Assembly (NCBI GenBank): GCA_965226795.1
Contig: CBDDDZ010000005.1
Span: forward strand, 64,001-128,000
Direction of reading: 5' to 3'
From: Candidatus Latescibacterota bacterium
GTDB lineage: Bacteria; Latescibacterota; UBA2968; GCA-2709665
DNA length: 64,000 bases
Each line of letters starts with the position of its first letter. Positions within the stretch are counted from its first letter, which is position 1. The position numbers were made by a program, and so were the translations under genes. The notes beneath the pieces were generated by a model that ran no database searches, had not been told where the DNA came from, and worked only from the letters and a program-made list of their open reading frames with translations. This document shows, piece after piece, positions 41,282 through 64,000 of this stretch.

Positions 41282-41337
41282 CTTAACCTTTTCCGCGTAT
41301 TCCGCGCGGCCGCTGCAACTACGTTGAATTTAGTCAC

Positions 41338-41439: not shown

Positions 41440-41449
41440 GCCTGGTTCC

Positions 41450-43353: not shown

Positions 43354-43440
43354 AGGAGGCCTCCGGAGTTATAAAACGCAAGTCGGGAATTGGGTCTCGC
43401 ATAAAGGGCGGTACCGCTGGCGATCGGATGCGATGGAAAT

Positions 43441-44598: not shown

Positions 44599-44718
44599 GA
44601 TACGCGCTCCTGAAATGACGTTAAGTGCCGGGGATATCGATCCACAATTTAGGCGCTACTTTAAACGCGCACAAGGAGATTCGGAGATCAGTCGTCCACG
44701 CGACATCAGGGGAGCCGT

Positions 44719-45732: not shown

Positions 45733-45886
45733 ATTCGTGAGTTGATTTGCGATGCAAGGGAACAGGGGGCTCACTGCCCCTGGAATTTACGATAGCCCAA
45801 TTCCAGGGGGTTGTCAACCATTTTGCGCGCTCATTTCGCGATCCTCCCCGGCCGGGCGGCAGACACGCCCAACGGATTTTTCTTCA

Positions 45887-46981
45887 TTATGAGCCCGTCG
45901 CCCCTTTGCGGGTGGGGCGGGGTCGACGTTCGAAAAAGGACCGGAGTTCCGTCGTGCGGGGATCGGCGCTGAGGGGCGTTGCGAGGATTTGTCGAAGTTG
46001 CTCCAGGCGCGCCTCCGGGTTCCGCCAGCTATTCAGCAGCGGATGATGGGGATCCGGCAGGGCCTGGAGGAGAGATTGCGCGGCCAGGAGGTGGAATATA
46101 AAGTGGTGGCCGTCCAGCAGGGCAGAGATATCCGTCCCTGACTCAGCACGGTATTCCGACGCCAGGGCGGCATAACTTGCGGTCAGAGCAGGTGTCAACG
46201 CGCTGTACGTCCGGCCGTCCGGCCGTCCGGCGCCGTGCGAGGTTGTGTACTGGGTCAGCCGACGTTCGGGCCAATCCCAGCCGATCTTTGAGAATTCGAT
46301 GAAACGGAGGGATTGCGTGACCGGGTTGATGACGATGTTGCGGGCCTGGTAGTCGATCGGACCGGGCAGCGGTGCCGCCCGTTCGAGGAATCGGAGAAGC
46401 TCGGTGAGCGCATTGCAGATTGTGGTGGAGCGCTTGCGGATCGCGGCCCTCGACAGCTTTTCAGTGAGACGCGGCAGGGCCCCGACAAGAGGTCGGGTGG
46501 TTCGTCGCCAGGTCCGCCGCAGATCCTGCGGGTAGCAGCCCGGAAAGGTTCGAGGGGCGAAAACGTCGTCCTGTACGTGAAAGACGGATTGAATTCGGGA
46601 AAAACCCTCCACGGCGAGACTGCAGTAGACTTCCGCGACGCCATCCTGACAGACGTCGTCGAGCGTGTGGTCGCCGCACCATTCAAAAAAGACCAGGTCG
46701 TGGTCATTATCGGCGGCATAAAGCCTGGGGAGGGGTCCGTCGGACAGGCGCGCGTGGACGAGCTGTTCAACGGCCAGCAGGTCGTGGGGTTTGCCGCGTG
46801 CCAGGGGAGCGAATACGTGGTGTTTGGCGACGAGGAGTGAGCCGTTCGCGAGCGTCACTTGCCAGACGTTCGGGTGGCGGGGAATGGACCGGATCTCCGT
46901 CACCGAGAACGCACCGGGAACGGTGGCGGGAGCGATACGCCGGACGGCCGCGATCGTCGAATCGTTGGAAGGAACACGCAT
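45887..46981 (-). CDS. Aminoglycoside-phosphotransferase / kinase-like protein
   Basis: LVAK, PRLYAAD, FEWCG, DYQARNI, FIEF (kinase subdomain-like, with EF in place of DF). Confidence 0.6.
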   Translation of the reverse strand: MRVPSNDSTIAAVRRIAPATVPGAFSVTEIRSIPRHPNVWQVTLANGSLLVAKHHVFAPLARGKPHDLLAVEQLVHARLSDGPLPRLYAADNDHDLVFFEWCGDHTLDDVCQDGVAEVYCSLAVEGFSRIQSVFHVQDDVFAPRTFPGCYPQDLRRTWRRTTRPLVGALPRLTEKLSRAAIRKRSTTICNALTELLRFLERAAPLPGPIDYQARNIVINPVTQSLRFIEFSKIGWDWPERRLTQYTTSHGAGRPDGRTYSALTPALTASYAALASEYRAESGTDISALLDGHHFIFHLLAAQSLLQALPDPHHPLLNSWRNPEARLEQLRQILATPLSADPRTTELRSFFERRPRPTRKGATGS

Positions 46982-46998
46982 GGAACGTTGAGGACGCC

Positions 46999-48270
46999 TT
47001 ACTTCTGCCGGGTCTTCCTCTTTCGCAGGGTGAGAAATTCCGGTGCTTCTCGAACACAGGAAACGAGGATGCCAAGGGAACGCCTGAAGGCGGCGAACCC
47101 GGTGCGGCGGATCTCGGCGGCGGTATCTCCCACGCTCTCAAATCCGTCTTCCGAGGGGGCCAGGCCCTCCCAGTTTCCGAAGAGCCGGCCCCATTCGCTT
47201 TCGAGAACTTCCCGCATCCGTTTCCTGGCGAAAAACGGATACCAGAAGCTGTCGTGGTAGAGAACGCTGGCGAGATAGGACCAGGGCGCCAGGAAGGTCT
47301 TGAGAGACCACTCGACGGGCTTTTTGAGAGGCCCCCAGTAGATTTTATGCTGCATTCGGGAGGCAAAGGTCATTTTGCGGAATGGACCTTCGAATTGCCA
47401 GTTTTCTTCGGCCGCAGCCGTATCCCCCACAATCTGAATCCGGCGCGGGTCGCCACAACCCAGGCCTCGTTCGTGGGCAAGGCGGATGTATTTGATGGAA
47501 AGCGGATCCATTCCCATCATTTTAGCGGCCACCGCATCGATGGCCACCTGGTCTGCGCCAGCGAGAATAACGTTTTTAACAAAGGGAATCATGCACCGCG
47601 GGCCGGGTCCGTCTCCGGCAAAGGTGCCGTCCATCACGGCAAATACACCGGGATGGATTTTTTTCTGGATCATCAACAGGTCCACAAGGGTCTCGTGGAT
47701 GACCGGATGGGTCCAGTGACGCCGTTCGTTGAGGAGACCGCCGAAGGCGTTTTTCATGGCCCCGGTTGTCGTGGTAAATACGTGGGTCTTTACCGTGGGC
47801 AGATGGACGATGTTCTCCCCGATCAGGCGTCGGGGAATGTGAAAGCCCTCCGGGTAGACCTGGTTCAGGCACAGGAACTCGTCTGCGAGATCGCCCACCG
47901 CATCCCGGATGTGGATCCATTCCTCGCCTTCGTAGAGGTGGATATTCCGCAGGCCGTGGGTGTTTACCACGTGGACCTGTTTGTTCTCGCGCTCGCCCAG
48001 GCGGGCATCGATGACGACCGTGCGGTTGTGGCAGGCATGGATCAGGTCCTTGCGATAACCGTCCTTTGCCATGGCCCGGATCACGCCTTCGAGTTGCCAT
48101 GGGGTCGTGGAACTACCGGGGTAAAAGAAATGCCAGGAGATATTGACCTTAAGCGCGGTGTCGAGCCCCTTGTCCAGGACGTCCTGGTACCCCGCCAGGT
48201 TCATGAGCCTGTGATAGTCTCTCAGGACGGTTCCAGGTCTGGTTTTTAAGACGGCAACCCGGCTCTGCAT
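46999..48270 (-). CDS. DUF362 domain protein
   Basis: LKVN, TTPWQLEG, LPTVKTH, TGAMKNAFG, DQVAIDA. Confidence 0.88.
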   Translation of the reverse strand: MQSRVAVLKTRPGTVLRDYHRLMNLAGYQDVLDKGLDTALKVNISWHFFYPGSSTTPWQLEGVIRAMAKDGYRKDLIHACHNRTVVIDARLGERENKQVHVVNTHGLRNIHLYEGEEWIHIRDAVGDLADEFLCLNQVYPEGFHIPRRLIGENIVHLPTVKTHVFTTTTGAMKNAFGGLLNERRHWTHPVIHETLVDLLMIQKKIHPGVFAVMDGTFAGDGPGPRCMIPFVKNVILAGADQVAIDAVAAKMMGMDPLSIKYIRLAHERGLGCGDPRRIQIVGDTAAAEENWQFEGPFRKMTFASRMQHKIYWGPLKKPVEWSLKTFLAPWSYLASVLYHDSFWYPFFARKRMREVLESEWGRLFGNWEGLAPSEDGFESVGDTAAEIRRTGFAAFRRSLGILVSCVREAPEFLTLRKRKTRQK

Positions 48271-48332
48271 ATCGAGTATTCTCCGGTGGTGGCGGGGAGG
48301 CGGTAAGGCAGGTAAAGGTCGAACGGCCCCCG

Positions 48333-49202
48333 TTACTTGAAATAAAGCAGGGCGATAACGGCGAGAAACCAGAGGCCGCCGTTGATGAGCAGCGATGGAT
48401 CACCCATAATGGTGGAGGATGGATTGCCGCCCTGGTTCTTGGCGTAGACCAGATAGAGGTAACGTAGAAGCCCGTAAATCACGAAGGGTATGGTGAGGTT
48501 GAGATGCGGTGTTCCGAGTTTCTGTGCGACGTCGGGCGACATGGTGTACAGCGCGTATGAAACGAGAGCGCCGGCGGTGACGACGGCGATCATCTGATCC
48601 AGAAACTGCGGCGTGTATTCATCCAGAATCCGTCGATGGCCGGCAGCACCGGATTCGAGGAGGATCAATTCCTGCCGGCGTTTGACAAACCCCATAAAAA
48701 GCGCCAGCAATACCGTGCATAGAATGAGCCACGAGGAGATTTCCACGTGGATGACGAGGGCACCGGCAATGGCCCGCAACAGGTATCCGGAGGCGATGAT
48801 CATCACGTCCAGGATGACGACATGTTTGAGAAAGAGTGAATAGGCGACGTTCATCAGCCCATAAGCCAGCAGAATACACCCGAAGGGGATACTCAGCAGA
48901 AAGGCCAGCGGGAAGATCGAAAGCGCGATAACGATGGAAGCAGTCCCCGCGGCGCCGGGGCTCAGCCGACCCGCGGCAACCGGCCGGTTGCGCTTTTCGG
49001 GATGCCGACGATCGGATTCGATGTCTCGAATGTCGTTCAGAAGGTAAACGGAGCTCGAGATAAGACAGAAGAGAAGGAATGCGCCGCCGCTACGCAAGAG
49101 GTAGCGTCCGTCGAGCAGGTGTTCCGAAAAGACCAGCGGTGCCAGCACGAACACGCTCTTTATCCACTGGTGCGGCCGCAGGGATTGTATGAGTGGACGC
49201 AT
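48333..49202 (-). CDS. UbiA family polyprenyl-phosphate phosphoribosyltransferase-like protein
   Basis: RPHQWIK, YLLNDIRDIESDRRHPEKRNRPVAAG, KRRQE; multiple TM segments. Confidence 0.9.
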   Translation of the reverse strand: MRPLIQSLRPHQWIKSVFVLAPLVFSEHLLDGRYLLRSGGAFLLFCLISSSVYLLNDIRDIESDRRHPEKRNRPVAAGRLSPGAAGTASIVIALSIFPLAFLLSIPFGCILLAYGLMNVAYSLFLKHVVILDVMIIASGYLLRAIAGALVIHVEISSWLILCTVLLALFMGFVKRRQELILLESGAAGHRRILDEYTPQFLDQMIAVVTAGALVSYALYTMSPDVAQKLGTPHLNLTIPFVIYGLLRYLYLVYAKNQGGNPSSTIMGDPSLLINGGLWFLAVIALLYFK

Positions 49203-49282: not shown

Positions 49283-52200
49283 TCAGATTGTCAACCCGAA
49301 GTAGATGCGGCTTTTGTCTATGTCGACGCCCTGAATGCGGTGGCGGGTGGGAAAGGCAATCTGGAAATAGCCGTACATGGGAAGTCTGTAGTTGTTGAAC
49401 ACCTGCATACGGAGTTCGAAGCCCCAGTCGGTCAGGAAGGCGGAGCGTTTGAACCTGTCGTCGGAATCGAGAAGCGCGCGCAGGCTTTCGAAATTGCCGG
49501 TGGCGCCGGTTTCCACGAAGACCGTGCCGTAGATTTTATCGAAATGGAAGGGCGGCAGTTCTTTCGCCGCATTCTTGAATATCGGGAAAGTCAGGCTGGC
49601 CCTCGCAAGCAGGGCTTTGCCACCAGAACTCGAAAAATAAGGATAGCCTCTGAGGGTGCCAATGCCTCCCAGATAGTACCGTAGGGGATAGTAGAATACG
49701 CCTTCCGCGGACGTGGTGTTCTCCTGGACGTCCTTTATGGGTTTGTCCTTGTACGCGACGAATGCCTGCAGGGCGAGGGTAGAACGGCCGGGCAGGCCGA
49801 TGAATTCATTCCACGACACGATGTACTCGTTGATACCCAGCTTGGTCTGATCGGACCGGAAAGTCGGGGCGGCAACGCCGTCCGGATTTAACTGGGTCTC
49901 GAAGAGCGAGTCGGCAACGGTGGCGTTGATGCGCCTGTATCTCAACGTGATCGCCCTGCCCCGGGACGGGTTCACGAACGTATCTTTTGCGGGCAGGAAA
50001 TTGAGGTATCGCCATCCGACGGCGAGGTCGTTGCTCTTGAAAAAGCTGAGATCCCGGTAGAGGAAATCGTCGAATACAACCTCATCTTCGCCCAGGCCGG
50101 GAATCTGGTCGGTTATGTCGGTTATCTCGCCGTTCCTGTTCTGAACCAGCCGCGTGCTGTCCAGTATGACCTGTTCGATGTGGGTGCTCTCCTGGTACCG
50201 GCGATGTCCGTAGGACAGGGAGAGCACCTGTCGCCGTCCCACGCTCGTCTCGACGCCGACCACGAAATCTTTAAACAGGTTCTTGTACCTGTCTTCCTCG
50301 GTGAGCGAGAGGTTGGTGAAATTGGTGACCCCCGGCACCAACCGGAGTGTGTCGTCGATCACGATCTGCAACGTCCCCGAGGTCGTGTCCCGACGGGAGT
50401 TCACGATTCCCCGATCGATCAGGCTGTTGATGGTCTGTTGGCTGGCGCCGATGTAAATCCTCGGGGCGTATGTCCGGTCTTCGGTGTGAACGGCGGGCAG
50501 GCCTTTTGTATAGAACGCGGAAAAATTGGAGTTGAGATCCACGCCTTTCTTCAGGTTCTTGCCGACGGTGAAGCCGGCGTAGATATTGTCGCTGCCCAGG
50601 AGGTCTCCCCATGCGGCTTCGGCGCCCGCGCTGAGCTGATCGAGGCCAAACCGATTGCCGATAAAGGTCGGTCCCAGAACGACTATGGGCACGACGCCGA
50701 TGGAGGTCAGACGAGGGGTGTACCGGCCGGTATTGAACAGGTCGCCGATTTTTTTGCCTTTATATATGCTGCTATAGTCCCGCGTCAGGGAATCGGCCGG
50801 CGCAGCCGCCACGGCGTCGGACTTCCGGATGCTGTAGATGTTGTAATTTGCGGCTTGGTACCCGGAATACAGGATTTCGTCGCCCCGGGGTGAAACCGAG
50901 GGCGAGAAGGCGCCGCCGATGACATTCGTGAGTTGCTCCTGCCTGCCGGTTGCGAGGTCAAACGCGTAGACATTGAAGATTCCTGTCCGGTCGGACGCGT
51001 ACAGAATACCGCCGCCGCCGGGAAGCCATACCGGGTCCCGTTCATCGGCGGTGGTGTTGATAATCACCTCGAAGCCAGCGTTGTTGGCGAAGGCCAGGCT
51101 GTCGGGGAAGGCGACCATGCTGTCTCGCAGGGCGGCTTCCGCCAGGGCGAGGCTGTCCGCCTCCGCCTGGGCGCTGTCGACCTCGGTTTCGGCCTTCTTC
51201 CGGGCAGCGATGCGCTCTGCCAACTCGATTTTTTCGGTCTTCTTCTTATCGGTTTTCTTGGGGCGTGGCGTGGCGTCCGCATTGATGACGGCAATGTCCC
51301 GGTCTTCCCCGCGGAAGATGCTGAAAAGAAGTCTGCTGGCGTCTTCCGACCACCGGGGCGTGTAATATTGCGTGCCGTTGTTGTTGTTGGTCAGATAGCG
51401 AACCTCTGTGCCGTCGATGTTCAGGATACCCAGGTTGGAGGTCCCGTCCCGATTGCCCACGAAGGCGATCTTCGTGCCGTCGGGAGACACCGCGGGGTCT
51501 CTTCCTCTCAGGCCGACGGTGAGCCGCCGTTCCTTTCGCGCGATGAGATCGTAGACAAAGATGTCCCAGTTTCCCCCTACGGATTTGCTATATACCAGGC
51601 TGTTTCCGTCGGGTGTCCAGGAGAAGGGCAGGTTGACGTATTTCCCGTATTTCCGGCTTCTGGCCACCTTCGTCAATTTTCGCGTGGTCAGATCCATCAC
51701 CAGCATTTCCATGATGGCGTAATCGCTGCCCTCATTGCTGATGAAGGCCATTTTCGTGCCGTCGGGTGAGAAGGTGGGGAAATGTTCCACGTCGCCCCGG
51801 TCTGTGAGCAGTTCGCCCTCGCGCTGTCCGGACGCGCGGATGGAATCGGCCATGGCGCCGTATCTGCGATCGAGATGCTCGGTCCATTCGTCGTAAAGCC
51901 TGGGAGCGGAAATGCCCGTGCTCTTCTTGACGGCGGATTTGAAGTTGACAATGGGCCGATCCCGGGACATGGCGCGTACCGAGTCCGGACCGTAGGTTTC
52001 GGCCAGATAGTTCAGGAAGGCATAACCCTGGTTGTAGACCTGTTCCGACTTGAAGCCGTCTTTCCCGAACACGCCCATGTCCGTATAGGAAAGCAGGTCG
52101 TTTTCGAGCGTGGCCATCCGAAGGATCATATCCCGGTGGGTATCCCAGCGGTCGTCTCCGTACTTTCCGGCTTCAAACTGGGCGATGCCTTCGGCGAACC

Positions 52201-52849
52201 AGTTCGTCATCGCGGAGTGGTAGATCGGCAGGAAGAAGCCGAAGTCCGGATTCTGGTTGGAACGGCTGCTGCCGATCAGGCCGAATGCAAAGGGCATGCT
52301 GTTGTGGGAGGATTTGAGCGTGATGTGGTGGGTGAGTTCGTGGGTGAAGACGTCGCGTACCCAATCGTGGGTGCCTCGCGAGTCCCAGTTCAGCGGCGAG
52401 GCCCCGAATGTGATGACGTTGCCCAGATAGAAAGAGGATGCGTTACCCAGAATATCTATATCGGAAACGAGCACATGAATCGGGGCATATCTTTCTATGG
52501 AGCCCGGGTAGTGGCTGGAAATTTTCTCGAACGTGTCGTCTGCGATCTCCGCAATGCGACGGGCCGTATTCTCGGCTTCGGCGTAATAGATGGCGAAGTA
52601 CCTGGTGCGGATTGCCCGGGCGCCGGGCACACGAAGGCCGAGCAGGGTGGGAAAGAAATGCTGCTCGTGTCTATCCCAGGTGTAGTCGGGCATGGTGCGG
52701 TTCAACGGCACGTCGGCAATGTCGACGGTGGGACCGCGTTTGAACTTTTTGGGGATCTGCTGGGCGTCGGAGGGGAAGAGTACACCGGACGAAAAAGCGA
52801 TCAATATCGCGCTGAAAAGGCTGATGGAAAGGAACGTGGATCGGTTCAC
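49283..52849 (-). CDS. Outer-membrane protein: gluzincin domain + TolB-like (PD40) propeller + C-terminal beta-barrel
   Basis: Signal peptide after GTG 52849; HELTH...WFAEGIA; repeated PxFSPDG/PxWS; LGGIGTLRGYP Omp85-like loop motif. Confidence 0.8.
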   Translation of the reverse strand: MNRSTFLSISLFSAILIAFSSGVLFPSDAQQIPKKFKRGPTVDIADVPLNRTMPDYTWDRHEQHFFPTLLGLRVPGARAIRTRYFAIYYAEAENTARRIAEIADDTFEKISSHYPGSIERYAPIHVLVSDIDILGNASSFYLGNVITFGASPLNWDSRGTHDWVRDVFTHELTHHITLKSSHNSMPFAFGLIGSSRSNQNPDFGFFLPIYHSAMTNWFAEGIAQFEAGKYGDDRWDTHRDMILRMATLENDLLSYTDMGVFGKDGFKSEQVYNQGYAFLNYLAETYGPDSVRAMSRDRPIVNFKSAVKKSTGISAPRLYDEWTEHLDRRYGAMADSIRASGQREGELLTDRGDVEHFPTFSPDGTKMAFISNEGSDYAIMEMLVMDLTTRKLTKVARSRKYGKYVNLPFSWTPDGNSLVYSKSVGGNWDIFVYDLIARKERRLTVGLRGRDPAVSPDGTKIAFVGNRDGTSNLGILNIDGTEVRYLTNNNNGTQYYTPRWSEDASRLLFSIFRGEDRDIAVINADATPRPKKTDKKKTEKIELAERIAARKKAETEVDSAQAEADSLALAEAALRDSMVAFPDSLAFANNAGFEVIINTTADERDPVWLPGGGGILYASDRTGIFNVYAFDLATGRQEQLTNVIGGAFSPSVSPRGDEILYSGYQAANYNIYSIRKSDAVAAAPADSLTRDYSSIYKGKKIGDLFNTGRYTPRLTSIGVVPIVVLGPTFIGNRFGLDQLSAGAEAAWGDLLGSDNIYAGFTVGKNLKKGVDLNSNFSAFYTKGLPAVHTEDRTYAPRIYIGASQQTINSLIDRGIVNSRRDTTSGTLQIVIDDTLRLVPGVTNFTNLSLTEEDRYKNLFKDFVVGVETSVGRRQVLSLSYGHRRYQESTHIEQVILDSTRLVQNRNGEITDITDQIPGLGEDEVVFDDFLYRDLSFFKSNDLAVGWRYLNFLPAKDTFVNPSRGRAITLRYRRINATVADSLFETQLNPDGVAAPTFRSDQTKLGINEYIVSWNEFIGLPGRSTLALQAFVAYKDKPIKDVQENTTSAEGVFYYPLRYYLGGIGTLRGYPYFSSSGGKALLARASLTFPIFKNAAKELPPFHFDKIYGTVFVETGATGNFESLRALLDSDDRFKRSAFLTDWGFELRMQVFNNYRLPMYGYFQIAFPTRHRIQGVDIDKSRIYFGLTI

Positions 52850-53009
52850 AATTGCTTCTCCTGGACTTCGGTGGTGGGATTGGACGGCCGTCGGGAAGTT
52901 GAACGATGCGCCAGGGCGCGGGTCGACAACCCTGTCTTGCTCGCGCCGGTCACGGTTCGGCCGCAAAGTTACATAATTAGACTTCCAAAGGCAACGAACG
53001 GTTCCAAGA

Positions 53010-53999
53010 TCATGCCGTAGGGAGGTGCTGACGGGTCCGAAGGATACAGGCGACGCTGTGGTTTCCGCCAATTTCAAGCAGTTCGGGCACGATCTTTGTG
53101 CAGGCGTCTTCGCGCTCCGGGCAGCGGGGGTGAAAGGGGCAGCCTTGAGGCACATTCGACGGGCTGGGTACGTCGCCGGTGAGTACCGTGCGTTGTTTTT
53201 TGATACGCGGGTCGGGCACGGGAACGGCCGAGAGCAGGGCGCGGGTATACGGGTGTTGAGGATCGCTGCAGAGGGTGTGGCTGTCCGTGATTTCCACGAT
53301 ACGCCCCAGGTACATCACCGCGATGCGGTTGGAGATGTGTCTGACAACGCTCAGGTCGTGCGCGACGAACAGAAAGGTAAGGCCGAACCGGGCTTGAAGA
53401 TCCTGGAGAAGATTGATGATTTGCGCCTGAATAGACACATCCAGGGCGGAGACGGGTTCGTCCGCAACGATAAATTCCGGATTCACGGCCAGGGCCCGCG
53501 AAATGCCGATGCGCTGGCGCTGGCCTCCGCTGAATTCGTGGGGATACCGGCGGGCGTGGTCGGGACGGAGGCCCACCGTGTCGAGAAGTTCGGCCACCCG
53601 CTCCCGCGTATTGTTGCGATCGGTGAGTTTGTGGATTTTTAGCGCTTCGGCCAGCATCCCCCCCACGGTCATTCGGGGGTTCAGCGAACTGTAGGGGTCC
53701 TGGAAGATGATCTGCATACGGCGCCTTACGGCGCGAAGTTCGGAGCGGTTCAGGCTGAAGACGTCGACTCCGTTGAACAGCACGCGACCCGCGGTGGCCT
53801 CGATGAGCCGGAGGATCGTTCTTCCGGCGGTGGTTTTGCCGCAACCGGATTCTCCCACCAGACCCAGGGTTTCGCCTCGTTGAACGCTGAACGAAACCCC
53901 GTCTACAGCCTTCACGTAACCGACGGTCCGGGAAAAAACTCCGCGGGTGATGGGGAAGTGTTTTTTGAGGCCGTGGACTTCGAGCAGTGGCTTGGACAT
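53010..53999 (-). CDS. oppF: Oligopeptide ABC transporter ATP-binding protein
   Basis: [40 protein letters not shown]. Confidence 0.95.
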
Positions 54000-54009
54000 A
54001 TCGATCCGA

Positions 54010-54999
54010 TCACGTCGCGGGAGAGGGATAATCTTCGACCATCCAGCAGGCCACGAGGCGGTTACCGGCGGTCGGTTCCAGGCGAGGCTCGTCCGTTTCA
54101 CATATGTTCTCGGCAAACGAACACCGTGGCGCGAACCGGCACCCGGAAGGGAAGCGCGTGGCGTCGGGAACGGTCCCGGGAATAACGGATAGCCGGTCTT
54201 TTTCTTCGTTGAGTGAGGGTATGGATTCCAGCAGCCCCTTTGTATAGGGGTGCTGGGGGCTGGCGAAGATTTCGCCCACGGTTCCGGTTTCCACGATCTT
54301 TCCGGCGTACATGACCGCCACGCGATCCGCGACCTCAGCGATGACGCCGAGATCGTGCGTAATCATCAGGACGGCCATCCCCAATTCTCTTTGAAGCCGG
54401 TCCAGAAGTTCCAGAATCTGGGCCTGAATGGTCACGTCCAGCGCCGTGGTGGGCTCGTCGGCGATGAGCAGTTCCGGATTGCAGGAGAGGGCAATGGCAA
54501 TCATCACCCGCTGGCGCATGCCGCCGGAAAGCTGGTGAGGATATTCGTTTGCCCGTTGTCCGGGATCCGGAATGCCGACCAGGTCGAGCATGTCCACGGT
54601 CCTGGCCCGAGCGGCGCCCTTGCCAAGACGCTGGTGGAGCATGACGGCTTCGTCAATTTGGTCGCCGCAGGTGAAAACCGGGTTGAGGCTTGTCATCGGC
54701 TCCTGGAAAATCATCGCGATGTCGTTGCCTCTTACACGCTGGAGTGCGGTTTCGTCCAGACTCAGCAGATTCCGTCCGTTGAACCGGATCTCCCCCGAGA
54801 CAATTTCACCCGGCGGTTCGGGTATCAAACGCATCAGGGACAGAGACGTAACGCTCTTGCCGCATCCGGACTCTCCCACCAGTCCCAGTGTTTCCCCCTT
54901 TTTGAGGGTGAAGGAGACCCCATCCACGGCTTTGGCGACCCCGCCGTCCGTATGGAAATACGTCGTTAGTTCTTCGACGGTTAATAGAGGTTCCGACAT
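54010..54999 (-). CDS. oppD: Oligopeptide ABC transporter ATP-binding protein
   Basis: [40 protein letters not shown]. Confidence 0.95.
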
Positions 55000-55108
55000 T
55001 AAACCGACCATGAGTTGAGCATGCGTTTACTTCGGATGCGCCGCGAAACGGGCCGCCGCGCGTGTTTGAAAGGGACACCGCCGATCGGCAATCAACCGCT
55101 GGGCCGGA

Positions 55109-55852
55109 TCAGAAGAGCGGCGGATTCAGATTCAGCCAGTCTTCCAGTAGAAAATCCACGCGGCCGATCAGCAGGGAGATGCGCGCCATAACGGTATAAC
55201 CGAACGAAGCGCCGAATGAAACCATAAGGAAATATATGCCCACCCTGGAGATGCCGCCGACGACCCCCTTATGCTCGATGGAGAAATAAAAGTAAATGAG
55301 TACACTCACCACGCCGATCAGGATGATCGCCGGGTTCAGGGCAGCCCATCCGAAGTCCGTCGATACCTGCGAAAACGGGCTGATTGTGGGTCCGATCTGC
55401 TCGATGACGAAGGAGGAGACGCGCCGGGGGATGGCCAGGCCGGCGCCGAGCCCCACGAAAAAAGCAAAGGAGATGCGGCTGAGCCAGACTGCCCTGCCGA
55501 AAAAGCGTGTCATCAGAAAAAGACCGAGGCCCGCCGGGACGATCACCCACCAATTGACGCCCGTGTCAGGCGGTGGACGGAAGAGGGGGTTGATGACGTC
55601 CACGAGGATGCTCTGATACCAGACCAGGGCGAGTTCGTAGGCGGCGACAACGCCGACGTAGAGGTGCTCGGCCAGCTTGAAGAGCGGATTATCCCGATAC
55701 AGGAAGCTGTAAAGGGCGAGCGTGATGCCTGCGGCGAGGATAACTCCGAAACCCGACCAGCTTGCATCCAGGCTGCCGACGGCCAGGAGATACCCGTTTA
55801 CGACCGCAAAAAGCAGAATAAGGATCGGGAAGACGATGTGTTCTCTGTCCAT
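55109..55852 (-). CDS. Uncharacterised polytopic membrane protein
   Basis: About 7-8 hydrophobic segments; YSFLYRDNPLFKLAEHLYVG and FGASFGYTVMARISLL. Confidence 0.85.
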   Translation of the reverse strand: MDREHIVFPILILLFAVVNGYLLAVGSLDASWSGFGVILAAGITLALYSFLYRDNPLFKLAEHLYVGVVAAYELALVWYQSILVDVINPLFRPPPDTGVNWWVIVPAGLGLFLMTRFFGRAVWLSRISFAFFVGLGAGLAIPRRVSSFVIEQIGPTISPFSQVSTDFGWAALNPAIILIGVVSVLIYFYFSIEHKGVVGGISRVGIYFLMVSFGASFGYTVMARISLLIGRVDFLLEDWLNLNPPLF

Positions 55853-55864
55853 GCCGGTGTCCTT

Positions 55865-56692
55865 TTACGAGCGTGATGCCCCGCGGTGCAGAAAGTAGAC
55901 GACGTTTCCCAGCAGGATAAATCCGATGATGACCATATGTGCGACGGACTGGGGGCGCATACCGCTGACCGCCTGCGCTCGCTTGCCCACAAGGGTTTCG
56001 TATTCCGCTGCGCCCGCGAGCCCGCCGATGAGTCCGTTGAGCTGCCGGGACTGAAGGAAGGGAAAGAAATCAGGCGCCATCACGGCGGTACAACCGGCGC
56101 CAAGGGGAAACCGGTATCGTTCCTGTCCGTACGCGATCCATTCGTCGACGCCGGGATACCCGGCGGCCAGGTCGACCACGTAGTCGAAATCCTTCAGGGA
56201 GCGAAGATTTCGGGTGAGGGGCATTTCGGTGGTGGCAACACCCCGGATGTCTTCGGAAAACGCGGCGTGCAGATCCTGCCCCATGTTCAGGATCAGGATC
56301 GCACCGCCGGCCTTGAACCCGAGGAACGCATAGTCTGTACCGTTAACCCGTCCGTATTCTTCCGCCGCTGTATCAAACGCCTGCATAGCGAGCCCCACGG
56401 CTTCGGTGATGAGGGTCACGCCCACAACCCGGATGTTCCGGCTGAAGCAGTGTCGCAGAATGGCCAGGGCCATGGGCTGAAGTTCCGGCTGTGAACTCGG
56501 GCCGTAGTCGAAGGAGATGAGCACGACGGCATCCGACTTTCCTGCCAGGCCCTCCACGGTGTCGTAAACTGCGCGCACGTTGGGCGTGGCTTTGATGGGC
56601 AGTTCGAAGCCGATAAGCAGAGGAATACATACAGCCAGAAAGACGGCCAGGTAGATGATACGACGGTCGATGTTCAGAAGGCGTTCGATCAT
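55865..56692 (-). CDS. Uncharacterised membrane-anchored alpha/beta protein
   Basis: N- and C-terminal TM segments around a soluble domain (SFDYGPSSQPEL, GLAGAAEYE); ATGA overlap with upstream gene. Confidence 0.85.
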   Translation of the reverse strand: MIERLLNIDRRIIYLAVFLAVCIPLLIGFELPIKATPNVRAVYDTVEGLAGKSDAVVLISFDYGPSSQPELQPMALAILRHCFSRNIRVVGVTLITEAVGLAMQAFDTAAEEYGRVNGTDYAFLGFKAGGAILILNMGQDLHAAFSEDIRGVATTEMPLTRNLRSLKDFDYVVDLAAGYPGVDEWIAYGQERYRFPLGAGCTAVMAPDFFPFLQSRQLNGLIGGLAGAAEYETLVGKRAQAVSGMRPQSVAHMVIIGFILLGNVVYFLHRGASRS

Positions 56693-57345
56693 TGTCCTTT
56701 CTCTCCGAGATAGGATCTTTCGATGCCGAAGATGATGCGCAGGGCCGTCGCGATGGCGCCGAGGCTCACGCCCAGCAGGATGCCGCGGCGGGCGGCCAGG
56801 TTGGGAGTGGCCATCAGCCACTGGGACACGGTGGGCAGGTGTTCCGAGATGAGCGCGCCGATGGGTACCCGGCCCATCATGACGAGCAAGGCGGCAATAA
56901 GGAGCACAACGGCCTCGGCCGAACGGGCGCGGAACGTGCGGTAGGCGGCGGAAGCGATAAAGAAGGCGAGGAGAGAGAACATGGTGGCCCCGCCGGCCAC
57001 GTGGATGTGGGTATACATCCAGTTAAGGTCCAGGCCATCGCCCTGCGCCATTGGCTGCAGGGGTCCATGTCCGTTGTTGTAGGCGGCCAGTATTGCCGTG
57101 ACGATAAATCCGATGTACACAACGGCGCTGAAAGCCCACCCGGCCTGTTTGCGTTTGACCCGGTTCCCATGCATCTGCAACAGGCTGTGGATACCCAGGA
57201 ACAGGGCGAAGGCGGCGATGATTCGGTACCAGGTGGAGGTTGTAATCTCAACCGGCTGGGCAACCGGAATATAGTAGGTGAAAATGCCGATCATACCCGC
57301 TGCAAAGGCCACGAGCAGCGGAAGGGTGCGTTGGAGGAAATACAT
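56689..57345 (-). CDS. Uncharacterised polytopic membrane protein
   Basis: About 6 TM segments; ATMFSLLAFFIASAAYRTFRARS, PNLAARRGI. Confidence 0.85.
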   Translation of the reverse strand: MYFLQRTLPLLVAFAAGMIGIFTYYIPVAQPVEITTSTWYRIIAAFALFLGIHSLLQMHGNRVKRKQAGWAFSAVVYIGFIVTAILAAYNNGHGPLQPMAQGDGLDLNWMYTHIHVAGGATMFSLLAFFIASAAYRTFRARSAEAVVLLIAALLVMMGRVPIGALISEHLPTVSQWLMATPNLAARRGILLGVSLGAIATALRIIFGIERSYLGEKGQ

Positions 57346-57399
57346 TCGGTTTTCTCCGTGCGAAATGGGGTCTTGAACGTGGGCGTTTTGCCGACGTCG

Positions 57400-58584
57400 T
57401 CAGCCAAGGATCGGCCAGAAGCCGATACCGGCCAGTACCGAACCGAGCACCAGAATAAGAATCAGGATTGCCTTCCCCAGGTCCTGTCCCTTCAGGCTTC
57501 CCAGAAGCTTTGGGTCTCTGGAGAGATAGGCGCTGGCGGCGTAGAGTTCCTCCCCCATCAGGGTATAGTCGCAGGTCGTGATAAAGAACGGAAGCTGTGT
57601 ATAGGCATCGGTTGCGGCGATCTGGATGGCGCCGGTCGTGGAGCCGGTTTCCGCCAGGAGCAGGGCTTCGGCGTAGAAATAACCGATCAGAAGATTGGCT
57701 GCCGGCTTCTCACGCACCATCAGGCCCTCCAGCGCGGCCGCGTAGCTGAACTGATCCGCAGCCGCCAGAAAGACGTTGTCCGGGTTGAACGCGTCCGGTC
57801 GCCCGGCCTCGATGCAGGATTCCTTGACCACTTCCTGGCTCACGGACATGACAATCGGATCCCGGTTACCCACCTTGAGCTGAGTATCGTATTGGGCGGT
57901 TCTTTTCGCCACCTGGCCGAGAATATTCACGGCGGCAATGGTGGAGGGGCTGCCCATGTCCTGCAGCCCGTGGATGAAAAGCACCGGCTTTCCCATTTCG
58001 GTTGCCCGGCCGAGGGCTTCGTCCAGAGCGTCCAGGCCGGCCAGCCGGCGGATATAGAGACTCTTGCGGCGGGCAAGCCGGATATAGGCGAGGATCATAA
58101 TGGAGAAGAGCACGGCCAGTACGAAATTTGGGAGCTTGGTCCAGTCGAAAAAGTTGCCGCTGGCCTGGGCCTCGACAACAGCGTGGCCCACACCCTGGAT
58201 TCCGAGGCGAACGAAAAAGGGCCGGTTGTTTTCGAGCCTGATCCGATCCGGTCTCTCCGGAACGCGGTAGGATTCAATATGGACGAAGTGACGGTTGCGG
58301 CTCTCCTCACCCCTGCCGAACGTGGCCGGCTCGTCGGCCATCGTCGGAGCCGTTTTCGGGTCCAGTTCCACGACGTCATAAAAGGGTCCGTCCACCGATT
58401 CGGAGACGCTGATACGATAGCGCGCGCTGTCCGGCAGGAAGTCGATCCGCCGCCAGGTGAGCGTGATGCTGTATCCCTGGTCGTTGGCCGTGTCGAAAGC
58501 CCGAACGTCGGCGAGCACCTGGTCTGCCGCGGCGGCAGGCGAAGCAGCGATGGCAAGAGCGAAGAAGAGAGATAGATACGCCAT
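57400..58584 (-). CDS. DUF6754-like protein with signal peptide and FN3-like N-terminal domain
   Basis: Signal peptide, SITLTW beta-sandwich, TM, then IRRLAGLDALDEALGRATEMG...QLPFFITTCDYTLMGEELYAASAY. Confidence 0.8.
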   Translation of the reverse strand: MAYLSLFFALAIAASPAAAADQVLADVRAFDTANDQGYSITLTWRRIDFLPDSARYRISVSESVDGPFYDVVELDPKTAPTMADEPATFGRGEESRNRHFVHIESYRVPERPDRIRLENNRPFFVRLGIQGVGHAVVEAQASGNFFDWTKLPNFVLAVLFSIMILAYIRLARRKSLYIRRLAGLDALDEALGRATEMGKPVLFIHGLQDMGSPSTIAAVNILGQVAKRTAQYDTQLKVGNRDPIVMSVSQEVVKESCIEAGRPDAFNPDNVFLAAADQFSYAAALEGLMVREKPAANLLIGYFYAEALLLAETGSTTGAIQIAATDAYTQLPFFITTCDYTLMGEELYAASAYLSRDPKLLGSLKGQDLGKAILILILVLGSVLAGIGFWPILG

Positions 58585-58665
58585 TGCGTGTCTCCTGGCG
58601 GCCCTATTCAGGCGCGCCGGATTCGTTGGGGCAAGGATGGAAGTGGCGATCGGGCACCGGATACA

Positions 58666-59787
58666 TTACGCTTCGATCCTTTCGGCGTTTGCGCGGGGTA
58701 TCACGGCCTGTTGTCCGTTCTCGAACCGGACTTCCAGGACGCGTACCCGGATTTCCGATTCAACGACCGCCAGTTCGGAAGGCAGGGCGGTGATCACACC
58801 GGTTTTTCCAAAATATGGCGCCCGGATCGTTCGGATCGGATCTCCGACGGAGAGGCCTTCCCGGTCGACTGAATCCTCGGCAGCGGCCGAACCTCCCGGG
58901 TCGGGAACGATGATTTCCGGACGAAGCACGCCGGCGCGGATCTGGGTTGCGCCCGAGATCGAAGCCTCGTCGCCGTTCCTTTCGTTAAGGATGTCGAAGG
59001 TCTTCCGAGCCATGGCGATGTCGCCGAATCCTTCGGTGACCACGACGGTGAGGCCGATTTCCTCGGTGCCGGTAATGGCCACGCCGAGGTCGTAACCCAG
59101 CAGGCTCCGCAGGTCGTGGTCGCGAATGCCCCCGCCAATGAGGCCGGCCGCTCCGGTTTCCCGCGCTTTCCGGATGAGATCGAGGGTAACGAGGCCCCCG
59201 GCGACGAGAATTTTTCCAGCACAGGAGGCGTCGATTCGATCTTCCGGGAGCCGCTCGTCGGGGGTAGCGGCAAGCGTACGGATCGCACCCCAGCTTTCGC
59301 CGCCAATGCCGAAAATGCCCTGAAGAAAGGCGCCGGCGGTTTCAACTACGACCCCCTGGCCGGGAATGGTTTCCACAACGGTGCCGTCCACGTAGGCCCG
59401 TACCTGTACGGGACGGGGCGGGCCGCGCAGGATAACTTGGCCGGTAACAGGCGATACGCTTTCCACTGTGCCCGTGACGGGCGACTCCACCGTGGTTTTG
59501 AACCACCGGATGAACGGTCTGGTCTCGGCAATGGGTTCCCCGGCCTGGACCGGTTCTCCGTCCTTCTTGAGCATCAAGGTCGGGAGTTCGTCGGGGGTGA
59601 CGCTCAGCCTGTTGACCAGGTTCAGGATGGTCACGTCGCCCGGCAGATCCGTCCGGGCCACGACCTGGTCGCGCTGTACAGATTCACCTTCCGAAACCAG
59701 CACCTCTCCGGTGAGTGGCAGCTGACGTCTCTTCCGTATGGTTGCCCTGCGGGTGACGCGCAGGCCGGGGGTGTAAGTATGCGCCAT
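58666..59787 (-). CDS. Uncharacterised soluble protein (barrel-sandwich hybrid + alpha/beta + KOW-like)
   Basis: VSEGESV, GEPVQAGEPIA, SPVTGTV; GKILVAGG...GAAGLIGGG; VGDPIRTIRAPYFGKTG; start MAHTYTPG. Confidence 0.85.
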   Translation of the reverse strand: MAHTYTPGLRVTRRATIRKRRQLPLTGEVLVSEGESVQRDQVVARTDLPGDVTILNLVNRLSVTPDELPTLMLKKDGEPVQAGEPIAETRPFIRWFKTTVESPVTGTVESVSPVTGQVILRGPPRPVQVRAYVDGTVVETIPGQGVVVETAGAFLQGIFGIGGESWGAIRTLAATPDERLPEDRIDASCAGKILVAGGLVTLDLIRKARETGAAGLIGGGIRDHDLRSLLGYDLGVAITGTEEIGLTVVVTEGFGDIAMARKTFDILNERNGDEASISGATQIRAGVLRPEIIVPDPGGSAAAEDSVDREGLSVGDPIRTIRAPYFGKTGVITALPSELAVVESEIRVRVLEVRFENGQQAVIPRANAERIEA

Positions 59788-59861
59788 TGGTTCAGAATTC
59801 CGTAAGGGTCCTTCCGCCTTATAGTCGCGCCGGCGGCGACCATTGGCGGGTGGCCATGCTC

Positions 59862-60932
59862 TCAGATTTTCATTTTTGGATCCAGGGCGTCCCGCAGGCC
59901 GTCGCCAAGCAGGTTGTAGAGGGTTACGGTGATAAAGATGGCAAATCCGGGTACGATAACCAGCCACCAGGCCGCGGTATTGTTCCGGGCGCCCGCGAGG
60001 ATCGCACCCCAGGTGATGGCCTCGGCAGGTACGCCGATGCCGAGAAAGCTGAGGCCGGATTCGGCCAGAATGGCGCCCGCCACCCCGAACGCCGCCGGGA
60101 TGAGTACGGGCGCGATGGCGTTGGGCAGAATGTGGATGAACATGATCCGGCCGCTGGAATATCCCAGACTCCTGGCCGCCGAAACAAAGTCGTAGCTTCT
60201 CACCTGCAGGAATTGCGACCGGGTGAGCCGGGCGATCCCGACCCAGCCGGTGAAGCCGAGGATCATCATCACGAAAAAGAGGCTGGGCGGGAAAAACGCG
60301 GCGACCGTAATAATCAGAAAGAGGGCGGGGATGGCGGCCCAGAGCTCGAACAGACGGGAGAGAATCAGATCGGGCCAGCCCCCGAAATAACCCGCCAACG
60401 CGCCAAGTGAGACGCCGATAATCATCGAGATCGCTACCGAGACCAGCCCGATGGTGAGCGCGTAACGGGTTCCGTGGATCAGCCCTGAAAGTACGTCGCG
60501 GCCCAGTCGATCCGTACCCAGAAAATGCGTCGTGCCGGGCGGTTCGTACTTCTCGCTGAGATTAACGTCGCTGGGACCATAGGGGACGGGCGGGAAAATG
60601 GCGTATTCGGAGTTCAGGCGCTTGAAGTTCCTCCTTCTCCTGAGCGGCTGCTGCCAGTCGGCCAGCCGGAGATAGACGGCGTACTGACGAAAAGCGGGGA
60701 AATAGGTCTTGCCCCCGTATTTCATAAAGTAGGGTTTGTTGCCCGCGAGAAAATCCGCGAACATCGCCGTGAGCGCCAGAACGCCGATCGCCGCCAGGCT
60801 GACAAGGGCCGGGCGATTTCTTCTGAACTGCTGCCAGACCAGCTTTGAATAGGTCTGGCTCTCCTGGACTGCCTCGGGTTCGGGCGTTCCAGCGTCCGCT
60901 TCGGTGAGGTCGCGCGTGGGAGTGGCGGCCAT
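59862..60932 (-). CDS. oppC: Oligopeptide ABC permease
   Basis: HFLGTDRLGRD, EAA-loop-like FVSAARSLG, HILPN, LGDGLRDALDP. Confidence 0.95.
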   Translation of the reverse strand: MAATPTRDLTEADAGTPEPEAVQESQTYSKLVWQQFRRNRPALVSLAAIGVLALTAMFADFLAGNKPYFMKYGGKTYFPAFRQYAVYLRLADWQQPLRRRRNFKRLNSEYAIFPPVPYGPSDVNLSEKYEPPGTTHFLGTDRLGRDVLSGLIHGTRYALTIGLVSVAISMIIGVSLGALAGYFGGWPDLILSRLFELWAAIPALFLIITVAAFFPPSLFFVMMILGFTGWVGIARLTRSQFLQVRSYDFVSAARSLGYSSGRIMFIHILPNAIAPVLIPAAFGVAGAILAESGLSFLGIGVPAEAITWGAILAGARNNTAAWWLVIVPGFAIFITVTLYNLLGDGLRDALDPKMKI

Positions 60933-60936
60933 AAAT

Positions 60937-62238
60937 TCATCCCTGCAGACGAGAAAACTCGATGCGCGGGTCCACGACTTTCAGGAGGATGTCCGCTAGC
61001 AGAATGCCAAGCAATGAGAGAAACGACCCGATGGTCAGAATGGCCATTACCATGGGATAGTCGCGTACGAGTACGGATTGAACGCCCAGAAAGCCCAGAC
61101 CCGGTATGGTGAAAATGGTTTCTATAAAGACCGAGCCGGCAATAACGGCCGGAAGCAGATTACCCAGAATGGTGACGATGGGGATCAGGGAATTTCGGAA
61201 GACGTGCCTGAGAATCACGATTTTTTCGGGCAGACCCTTAGCCCGGGCGGTGCGCACGTAGTCCTGCCGGAGATTTTCCAGCATGCTGGTGCGCATAAAA
61301 CGGGATAGGCCCGCGAAGCTGGCATAGCTGGAGGCCAGTACCGGCATGGCCATGTGATGGGCGTGGTCGGTTAACAGCCGCCAGAAGCCCCAGTCGGAGG
61401 AGGCGTCCAGGGACTGGATGCCCGAGGCCGGAAACCAGTAGAGAAATTCCTTGTTGCAGAAAAACACGATGAGCAGCATGCCAACCCAGAACGAAGGCAT
61501 GGACCACAGGATGAAGGTTCCGGTGGTGAGTGTGCGATCGGTCCGGGTGTCCTGTTTGACAGCCAGCCAGATACCCAGCGGAAGTCCGATGGCATAGGCG
61601 ATGATCAGGCTGATAATGTTGATTTCAATGGTAATGGGCACCCGCACCAGGATATGGGCGATGACCGGTTGCTGATCCTTGAAAGAACGACCGAAATTGA
61701 GTGTGACAAAGCGCCGGTCGAAGAGATGGAAGAGCAGCAGGCCGGCGCCGGTATATTCGTAGTTTTTCTCCAGCTTGACGGTTTTGCTCTCCCAGAAAGA
61801 CGAAAGGACGAGTGCCTGCGCCTCGTCCGGATGATATTTTTCGAAATTGCGAATGAACCGCGCTTTCCGCGCCTCGCTTTCCAGTGCGGCCAACTCACTT
61901 CGTTCGTCCGGGTCCAGTTCCGCGAGAAAGCCGTCGACGCGCCTGCCCGTGCGTTCAAAGTTGTTCAGTGGCTCCACGTGTAGAACCAGGCTCGATAACC
62001 AGTTCAGGTACTGGATGTGCAGCGGCCTGTCCAGGCCGAGTTCGCGGCGCAGTTCCTCCCGCGTTTTTTCGAAATCGGACTTCCGATCCGTCGAGATGCC
62101 CTCCTCTCCCGCCATTCCTCCGAGAAAAAAGTCTACCGGGTCTCCCGGCGCGAGGTGCATGACAAGGAAAGAGATGAGGGTGATGCCGATCATCGTCGGG
62201 ATCATCAGCAGGCTGCGCTGCACGATGTATTGAATCAT
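60937..62238 (-). CDS. oppB: Oligopeptide ABC permease
   Basis: LAPGDP, GLDRPL, DYVRTARAKGL, RDYP, DPRI. Confidence 0.95.
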   Translation of the reverse strand: MIQYIVQRSLLMIPTMIGITLISFLVMHLAPGDPVDFFLGGMAGEEGISTDRKSDFEKTREELRRELGLDRPLHIQYLNWLSSLVLHVEPLNNFERTGRRVDGFLAELDPDERSELAALESEARKARFIRNFEKYHPDEAQALVLSSFWESKTVKLEKNYEYTGAGLLLFHLFDRRFVTLNFGRSFKDQQPVIAHILVRVPITIEINIISLIIAYAIGLPLGIWLAVKQDTRTDRTLTTGTFILWSMPSFWVGMLLIVFFCNKEFLYWFPASGIQSLDASSDWGFWRLLTDHAHHMAMPVLASSYASFAGLSRFMRTSMLENLRQDYVRTARAKGLPEKIVILRHVFRNSLIPIVTILGNLLPAVIAGSVFIETIFTIPGLGFLGVQSVLVRDYPMVMAILTIGSFLSLLGILLADILLKVVDPRIEFSRLQG

Positions 62239-62317: not shown

Positions 62318-64000
62318 TTACTGATACAACCGGTTGCCGGCGCCTACCCACCATTCCTGGGTGTCCGCGCCAATGGCATACCAGTTATCACCCGCGAAAC
62401 GCTTGCTGTAGGAAATGGCGGTGCGGGACTTCCAAAGGAACGTATATGGCTGTTCGTCGTACAGGATTTCCTGAAATCGCCGGTACAGTTGAACGCGTTT
62501 GTCCATATCGAATTCCCGGCGGTAGGTTTCCAGGATGCGGTCGACTTCCTTGTTTTTGAAACCGATGTAGTTCGATCCCTGGCCCTCGGCCTGCGAGGAG
62601 TGCCAGATCTGGTACGAATCCGGCGGCAGGCTCAGACTGCCTGTCCACCCGAGGGTGCACGCGGCGAAATCCTTTTTGCGAACCACACGGTCCAGAAATA
62701 TGGTCCAGTCGAGTTCACGCACCTTGCAGACGATTCCAATGTCCTGGAGTTCATATTGCAGGGCCAGGGCGATGTCTTTGCGAAGCTGGTTGCCGGAATT
62801 GACGAGGAATTCAAACTTTAAGGGCCTCTTCTCGCCGTCGATGGTCTTGTCCAGGATGCCGTCGTTGTCGGTATCGGACCAGCCGGCCTCATCCAGAAGG
62901 GCGAGCGCTCTGTCGGGATCGTAGGGGAGGGGTTCGAGGTTGTGGTTGTATTCGGGACGGAATTTGTGAATGGGCCCCTCAACGGTTTCCGCCAGGCCGA
63001 ACATAAGGTTCAGTACCATGCTTTCTCGGTCGGTGAGGAACGTCATGGCTTTGCGTACGCGTTTGTCGCGGAAGATGGGGTGTGCATTGTTCCAGCCGAT
63101 GTACACGTACCCCGAAGAATATACCACGCTCTTCTTGAATCGGTCCATAAAGTCCGGAGACCAGCTCTTGTCTTTGAATTGCAGGGGTCTGAGCCCGAAG
63201 TAGTCTATGTTCCCGTTCGTGAGTTCGATGAACGCGGCCTCCTGGTCGTTCACGATCTTGAAGACGACCTTCTCCACGTATCCCTTGTGCATCAGATCAG
63301 CTCGGTCGCTTCCCCAGTAGTTGGGGTTGCGGGTCAGTATAACCTTCTGCCCCGTGACCACGTCGTCTTCCCAGTCTTCCACGAGATAGGGCCCGGAGCC
63401 CAGCATGTTTCGGTGGTAACGGGTGTTGAATTTCTCGGCAAACTGCTGCACGCGCTCGGCGTGTGGGCCGCTTTCCCAGGAGCCGTCGATCAGGCTTTGT
63501 ATGTCGACAGGATCCAGCAGGCCGTCGGGGTCGTAGAAGTGTTTGGGGAGAATCTGCATGCTGCCCAGGGAGATGTTGTTCCGGAAGTAGGGTTCCTGGC
63601 AGACGAAGCTGATTCTGTATTTGCCCTCCTGCTCGACGTCGCTGATGGCCGCGTAATAATTGCGGAGCGAGGCGGCCAGAACTTTCGGGTTCTTGATGAC
63701 CTTGATGCTGAAGAGGACGTCGTCCGCCGAAAGAGGCTTGCCGTCGGCGAAATGGACGTCGTCGCGCAGGTCGAAGGTATAGGTGAGCTTGTCTTCGGAT
63801 ACCGCGGGAGGTCCTTTTGCAACCAACCCTCTGAGTTTATAGGGTGATTCGTTCTCTATGTCGAGGAGCGATTCGAAGACGTACTGATGAACCGCGGATG
63901 CGCCGGAGTCATTGGAGACGTATGGGTTGAAATTCTCCGGATCCGACAGGAAGTGGCGGACCATCCAGTCTCCGTATTCCGGTTCGGCGTCGCCGGCGTA
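62318..64000 (-). CDS. oppA: Peptide ABC substrate-binding protein (family 5), 5' end outside the window
   Basis: YTFDLRDDVHFADGKPLSADDV, GSGPY, DKRVRKA, QIWHSSQ; frame open to the window edge. Confidence 0.93.
   Translation of the reverse strand, partial: YAGDAEPEYGDWMVRHFLSDPENFNPYVSNDSGASAVHQYVFESLLDIENESPYKLRGLVAKGPPAVSEDKLTYTFDLRDDVHFADGKPLSADDVLFSIKVIKNPKVLAASLRNYYAAISDVEQEGKYRISFVCQEPYFRNNISLGSMQILPKHFYDPDGLLDPVDIQSLIDGSWESGPHAERVQQFAEKFNTRYHRNMLGSGPYLVEDWEDDVVTGQKVILTRNPNYWGSDRADLMHKGYVEKVVFKIVNDQEAAFIELTNGNIDYFGLRPLQFKDKSWSPDFMDRFKKSVVYSSGYVYIGWNNAHPIFRDKRVRKAMTFLTDRESMVLNLMFGLAETVEGPIHKFRPEYNHNLEPLPYDPDRALALLDEAGWSDTDNDGILDKTIDGEKRPLKFEFLVNSGNQLRKDIALALQYELQDIGIVCKVRELDWTIFLDRVVRKKDFAACTLGWTGSLSLPPDSYQIWHSSQAEGQGSNYIGFKNKEVDRILETYRREFDMDKRVQLYRRFQEILYDEQPYTFLWKSRTAISYSKRFAGDNWYAIGADTQEWWVGAGNRLYQ

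Follow-up and report, generated by a model that had tools for sequence, protein, structure and literature searches.

In this analysis we followed up five genes, A to E, in a 64,000-nucleotide (nt) stretch of a Candidatus Latescibacterota genome (the window; assembly GCA_965226795.1, contig CBDDDZ010000005.1, positions 64,001 to 128,000). They form the downstream end of an eight-gene set, P-S-G-A-B-C-D-E, which recurs elsewhere as S-G-A-B-C-D-E, often with P. The original prediction had treated A to E as a five-gene unit that splits an operon for the oligopeptide transporter Opp. The unit has eight genes, and it is oppABC that separates G from A and not the reverse, because G stands directly before A in 72 of 81 loci. 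Opp is thus a lineage-limited neighbour that intrudes into the module. Of the core genes listed here, G, S and P were located on the same contig (C5 of genome G000, contig coordinates) and A to E have window coordinates.

P: C5:130270-130737, minus strand, two membrane helices and a weak PH-domain match (4/24 aligned rows)
S: C5:129957-130304, minus strand, helical protein of 115 amino acids (aa), without family
G: G000:C5:128180-129964, minus strand, GlmL-like actin-fold ATPase of 594 aa, 20 nt before the likely oppA start
A: 59787-58666, minus strand, 373 aa, soluble three-domain protein, partner of the ATPase G
B: 58584-57400, minus strand, 394 aa, signal peptide, variable beta-rich outer domain and DUF6754
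C: 57345-56689, minus strand, 218 aa, six-helix membrane protein, without family
D: 56692-55865, minus strand, 275 aa, membrane helix, Rossmann-like domain, membrane helix, without family
E: 55852-55109, minus strand, 247 aa, six-helix membrane protein, without family

Gene order, joint loss and the place of Opp

The span 55109-59787 is exactly filled by the five minus-strand open reading frames (ORFs) A to E. Their coordinates and the family matches of the flanking genes bear out the description of five close, co-directional genes between oppC and oppD, including the ATGA overlap (C/D) and the 12-nt gap (D/E). The other gaps are 74 nt (oppC-A), 81 nt (A-B), 54 nt (B-C) and 97 nt (E-oppD), with -4 nt at C-D. 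GC content is ordinary for the region, each of the five genes is single-copy in the genome, and the nearest relatives carry the title Candidatus Latescibacterota (up to 91% identity). The complete local order is P-S-G-oppA-oppB-oppC-A-B-C-D-E-oppD-oppF with every gap below 100 nt, S and P having been found upstream of G by clustering neighbour genes. The interleaved genes, none of which belongs to the core, are the following.

oppA-like binding lipoprotein: 62318..64000 plus 159 nt beyond the window end, minus strand, between G and A
oppB-like permease: 60937..62238, minus strand
oppC-like permease: 59862..60932, minus strand
oppD-like ATP-binding cassette (ABC) ATPase: 54010..55011, minus strand
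oppF-like ABC ATPase: 53010..53999, minus strand

Gene order was scored on 120 long loci (the best 80 of 546, plus 20 + 20 regions; short search loci were excluded), a sample biased towards two phyla and close relatives. B-C-D-E is contiguous in 104 of the 117 loci that carry B, the exceptions being contig ends, one broken locus and five true splits. S precedes G in 69 of 82 loci, with P before S in 45. The families therefore co-occur and stay syntenic elsewhere, as the gene-neighbourhood and phylogenetic-profile check proposed with the original prediction had asked. The arrangement with oppABC between G and A is found in 9/81 loci and reaches L114, whose genome comes from a different family within the class. 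In 10 loci a lone oppA stands ahead of P. Of 106 loci, 34 have an oppD-like gene after E (two of them on the opposite strand) and 72 do not. A quick tree of 38 OppD/F rows, whose deeper forks are unresolved, places five anammox oppD-like genes outside a 12-row Latescibacterota clade (SH-aLRT 98). We conclude that the linked system is very probably independent of Opp. Variants of the locus include B-C-D-E ahead of G-A (L166) and a tandem double B-C-D-E (L153 and L160, from genomes G196 and G156, and other Planctomycetota), in which one B of the pair may miss its outer domain.

Four of its genes are also lost jointly. DUF6754 was found in 41/41 near relatives, in 122 of 140 genomes of the phylum, in 66 of 201 Planctomycetota and in 0/14 control genomes, and its retention within one class is near-universal. 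Among the 18 DUF6754-negative genomes of the phylum, 17 are without G and A and all are without D; in the exception, G111 (87% complete), A lies close to a contig end. G, A and D were all present in 18 of 18 chosen DUF6754-positive genomes. G, A, B and D are thus lost together. In five planctomycetes without C-D-E beside B, four have D and E elsewhere and one has only an E fragment. Together with synteny, joint loss bears out the view that an undescribed, strongly conserved set travels with a GlmL-like gene. Match names add Armatimonadetes, Zixibacteria, Neomarinimicrobiota, Handelsmanbacteria and Xenobia to the phyla concerned, and no archaeal name occurs among the named matches. Although its profile matches 4920 clusters at 50% identity, D belongs to no family. 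One in-frame TAG each was seen in a D match (G172:C1:3526193-3527056, L176) and in a G match (G137:C35:13459-15240).

The module and opp probably share an operon in this lineage, and the predicted co-expression with Opp stands to that extent only. No terminator-like site was seen in the intergenic gaps of the region. Eight RNA runs from two studies contained about half or more of the sequence words (runs with a small share were excluded), and four of them were mapped, as contigs. These bridge oppD-E (54500-55803), E-D-C (55588-57256), B-A-oppC-oppB (57541-61450) and oppB-oppA-G-S-P, from 61101 to 3.8 kb beyond the window end. Among the RNA rows listed, the C-B junction is unbridged by 31 letters. 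The contigs are strand-less and may include DNA, and a single transcript is not implied. Promoter and terminator scans gave numbers close to chance (4 vs 3.8 and 19 vs 14.3 +/- 3.7). The region's strongest terminator-like hairpin (12 pairs and a T run; L197:17622-17653, minus strand, equal to G000:C5:131622-131653) lies near the start of an lplA-like gene upstream of P and may mark the operon's upstream boundary.

The soluble and membrane halves

The original prediction noted that a GlmL-like gene was absent from the window. This is correct, but such a gene, G, is encoded on the same strand just beyond the window, with its end 180 nt outside the edge. The search of the rest of the genome that it had proposed returned two genes with PF13941, one of which is G. 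G matches PF13941 with 435 bits (cut-off 27) over residues 7-478. It keeps both actin-fold phosphate motifs, DCGSTTTK and DIGGATTD, which are invariant in 14/14 rows, and is 64-90% identical across two phyla. GlmL/MutL is the accessory protein of the B12-dependent glutamate (methylaspartate) mutase. Although G shares the family match and the motifs with GlmL/MutL and Or-4, it is about 120 aa longer and falls below every curated cut-off: 233 vs 475 bits for NF040745 and 167 vs 204 bits for TIGR01319 (both GlmL), and 217 vs 600 bits for NF040744 (Or-4). No mutase subunit genes are found beside G, whose neighbours are S, P, oppA or A. The genome holds both kinds of GlmL. The true one (contig C4, 470 aa, 575 bits) passes NF040745 and TIGR01319 and is 31% identical to G over 492 columns. 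By eye, a 494-aa ORF after it reads like a glutamate mutase large subunit, and the two together occupy G000:C4:287894-290792 (minus strand, L001).

G and A work as one, because 62 of 63 long relatives of A are G-A fusions, many of them in large clusters. A comprises a barrel-sandwich hybrid domain (about residues 70-150), an RraA/PA-type swivel domain (about 165-295) and a KOW domain (about 310-373, matched in 8/38 rows). At E <= 0.5 the first of these matches RnfC_N in 29, Biotin_lipoyl in 28 and NqrA_N in 11 of 38 rows; the match to the RnfC/NqrA N-terminal family is weak (19.7 vs 25.6 bits) and the domain is promiscuous. The swivel assignment ranges from E 0.006 (RraA, 3c8o) to 0.11, with a PA domain in 3/38 rows. 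The hairpin tip of A is PFIRWFK here and PFIKWFK or GIFGFFK in relatives, and all 38 rows shown have an aromatic, basic tip. It looks amphipathic, and we infer from its sequence that it may serve as a membrane anchor. The nearby lplA-like gene had suggested lipoylation of A. Lipoyl and biotinyl carrier domains have an invariant acceptor lysine at the hairpin tip. In A, the tip carries an aromatic insert, with K97 in 31/38 and K90 in 21/38 rows, and lipoylation was rejected because no lysine is invariant.

A divergent clade of G-A fusions (loci L198-L217, proteins P0354-P0366) has two barrel-sandwich domains and no KOW, and its named matches are Cloacimonadota and Eisenbacteria. It may represent a stand-alone chaperone family. 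Its neighbours vary and include, by eye, a TetR regulator, a ferredoxin-like protein and in some loci a methylmalonyl-CoA-mutase-like gene.

On the membrane side, only B was assigned to a family; A, C, D and E have no Pfam or NCBIfam family at cut-off. That B is DUF6754-like proved right (PF20539, E 4e-114), while its supposed FN3-like part was not confirmed: FN3 matched 0/20 full-length B proteins, and a weak Ig-like match was seen in 1/20 (E 0.035). This outer domain is variable and is missing in homologues of 258-286 aa. The conserved segments quoted in the original prediction lie at residues 330-353 of B, 227-232 of D (GAAEYE) and 54-63 of E (DNPLFKLAEH), and vary little or not at all among homologues. 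By hydropathy, C and E have six segments each, D has two and B has the signal plus two. C has the invariant residues F123, F128, S132, A133, R136 and F138, and E has S49, E62, T220 and R224. The first helix of E is optional, and there is a hint of three hairpin repeats in register (E 0.02-0.07).

Models of D and of the DUF6754 domain of B have a common layout, in which a six-stranded Rossmann-like domain stands between two membrane helices. The domain of D is predicted to lie outside and that of B in the cytoplasm, so that the unit would bear a like domain on each face of the membrane. We know of no such arrangement, between two membrane helices or as a pair across the membrane, in transhydrogenase domain III, the sirtuin/ACDS-epsilon-type NAD/FAD-binding domains, TrkA/RCK or MT0777 (1kjn). 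The domains of B and D share 4-16% identity with these, at scores not above those of unrelated Rossmann folds. Foldseek with the B and D models gave no clear match (0 and 1 matches at E <= 0.001), an Atlas search matched D to unnamed clusters only and gave no match to B, and sequence searches with G, B, C, D and E turned up no solved relatives. A likeness of the last strands of B to ETF-alpha, seen by eye, failed its profile test. When C, E, D and the B domain were predicted as a complex, B scored 0.67 (runs 0.67, 0.64, 0.67), against 0.00 and 0.00 in controls with B replaced; a control with D replaced scored 0.66, and the result therefore speaks neither for nor against binding.

Several apparent joins were left unused: the B-C fusions P0276 and P0279 and the C-symporter P0303 have frameshift-like, garbled junctions, and the single A-B join P0305 is truncated. 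Alignment A8, intended for folding B and C as one, was misaligned and dropped. In P0296, from candidate division Zixibacteria, a C protein seems by eye to have a D-like domain inserted in an outer loop.

Possible functions of the set

We suggest that the eight-gene set is an ATP-driven importer of a small molecule, a proposal to which we give just under an even chance. That G-A acts on the membrane unit is likely. What the sequences themselves show is gene order, joint loss, the G-A fusions, the intact ATP-binding motifs of G and the six hydrophobic segments in each of C and E. In the scheme, B, C, D and E would assemble into one membrane unit, in which D would capture the substrate outside, C and E would form the passage and the inner domain of B would receive the substrate. 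G-A would be held at the membrane by A's aromatic-basic hairpin, dock on B and spend ATP to prise it open and release the substrate.

This last step is modelled on the dehydratase reactivase, where an actin-fold ATPase and a swivel domain displace a partner domain; in glycerol dehydratase reactivase, ATP hydrolysis frees the partner subunit from the swivel domain (PMC7674605). Like DdrAB/GdrAB, G-A pairs an actin/Hsp70-type ATPase with a swivel domain, in the fusions even in one chain. It differs in that A adds a barrel-sandwich hybrid and a KOW domain, and in that the presumed client is a membrane unit and not a soluble B12 enzyme.

Several observations weigh against the importer. The losses are confined to three whole families and five genomes and, being clustered in few lineages, are not independent, and the Planctomycetota genome G336 has B with no D match and only an E fragment. 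The likeness of A to RraA is weak (E 0.006-0.11), and DdrAB chains appear neither among the sequence matches of solved chains nor in 50 fold rows (B and D models only). A search for DdrA found it in 0 of 140 genomes and also in none of the controls, which makes it uninformative. On the membrane side, the lysine-plus-arginine windows differ in length, and profile comparison finds no significant homology between B and D (E 0.05-0.27, with a reversed control as good). As Rossmann-like folds are common, the shared fold may be convergent. Nor did the profile test relate C to E, reversed or shuffled controls being as good. No B, C, D or E gene was seen at distances of up to 8 kb from the divergent G-A fusions in 20/20 metagenome loci (many of them short contigs; P occurs in one), which suggests that a G-type ATPase may act without the membrane unit. 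Finally, the conserved neighbour clusters include no substrate-indicating gene common to the phyla.

The same evidence can be read in other ways. B-C-D-E might be a membrane-bound enzyme that transfers groups or exchanges cofactors at or across the membrane, with G-A activating or reactivating it at the expense of ATP, as GlmL is said to do for glutamate mutase. We consider this unlikely, though worth keeping in view: C and E have no metal- or haem-ligand set and no conserved cysteine, B and D have no glycine-rich dinucleotide motif, and the neighbour clusters listed contain no B12 enzyme beside the module and no metabolic gene common to the phyla. The energy coupling envisaged in the original prediction, if of the Rnf/Nqr type, meets a similar difficulty. 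Rnf and Na+-NQR have conserved cysteine ligands in two six-helix subunits. The module resembles them in the weak RnfC_N/NqrA_N-type domain of A and in its two six-helix subunits, but no cysteine is found among the residues conserved in at least 85% of 53 rows of C or E, or anywhere in the window's own C and E, and the module is without iron-sulfur or flavin motifs and without an RnfD/NqrB-like subunit. A sensor or gated channel, in which D would bind an outside signal, B would be an RCK-like regulator inside and G-A would relay or reset it, perhaps to RNA or RNA polymerase through the KOW domain of A, seems improbable to us. The conserved neighbour clusters listed hold no output gene of the kinase, cyclase or DNA-binding kind, the RCK scores do not exceed those of unrelated Rossmann folds, and KOW is missing in the divergent G-A clade.

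We judge it quite improbable that the set is a platform for envelope assembly or export, where an actin-fold protein docked on a membrane scaffold, like PilM or GspL, would move protein, lipid or glycan outward. G does belong to the actin superfamily, which includes PilM and the type II secretion protein L (PMC5597319), near-universal retention in one class fits a housekeeping role, and the hairpin tip of A is aromatic and basic. However, the conserved neighbour clusters listed contain no pilin, secretin or AAA ATPase gene, and among named families G is closest to GlmL. We give very little credence to the module as an accessory of the Opp peptide transporter. Tight packing with opp at this locus speaks for it, as do the loci with oppABC between G and A, with an oppD-like gene after E or with a lone oppA before P. 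Against it stand the direct G-A order and the missing oppD-like gene in most loci, the position of the anammox oppD-like genes in the tree, and the frequency of the module in anammox bacteria, which are chemolithoautotrophs. The usual order G-A-B-C-D-E, with no oppABC inside, likewise leaves the suggested peptide-linked role unsupported. Compared with Opp/Dpp importers, with which the module is interleaved and probably co-transcribed in this lineage, A to E have no ABC or BPD_transp_1 match (the best related one is TauC for E, 15.8 vs 342 bits), and Opp is absent from most loci.

Other genes of the window and wider meaning

Downstream of oppF, a gene at 49283-53155 (minus strand) encodes a secreted protein of about 1190 aa from its likely start, with a HELTH metallopeptidase-like motif, TolB-type propeller repeats and a long C-terminal region. 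In 25 loci of the phylum it comes after oppF, and it may form a peptide-foraging unit with Opp. The region 42055-49202 (minus strand) holds a UbiA-type decaprenyl-phosphate phosphoribosyltransferase-like gene, DUF362, a 364-aa ORF without family, an AIR-synthase-related gene, an iron alcohol dehydrogenase and a lactate-racemase N-domain. A lower-GC island at 24000-42000 (0.50-0.57 vs about 0.61) carries type I restriction-modification genes (the R subunit fused to a peptidase S24-like domain, S, and a partial M), an AAA_21 ATPase, DUF4365-TPR, DUF4062 and an IS630-like transposase. At 18466-23739 (plus strand), a 1757-aa protein combines a DEAD/RecQ-type helicase and a UvrD helicase; its gene is preceded by an 835-aa ORF without Pfam match.

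The literature searched yielded nothing on DUF6754, PF13941 or this system (GlmL, Or-4, ASKHA membrane complexes, TIGR01319 and anammox/Latescibacterota were covered), although proteome or complexome tables in subscription papers or supplements may list the genes. To our knowledge, no class of ATP-driven transporter has an actin/Hsp70-fold ATPase as its motor. In the part of the Kuenenia supplements of PMC7438415 available to us, there is no glutamate mutase, methylaspartate or GlmL row, only the DNA-repair MutL.

The importer, if it exists, could represent a new class of primary active transporter, a possibility that we hold tentatively and on balance somewhat doubt. Such a transporter would carry twin Rossmann-like domains on opposite membrane faces and would draw its power not from an ABC, P-type or rotary ATPase but from an actin-fold chaperone of reactivase type, which would remove the substrate from the inner domain. 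Latescibacterota, anammox bacteria and other little-studied phyla would have it as core equipment, under the wrong database label 'glutamate mutase L'. For annotation, long 'glutamate mutase L' genes are no sign of B12-dependent glutamate fermentation. Conservation this strong suggests that the system serves a basic process in bacteria that are widespread but poorly cultured, the anammox group among them.

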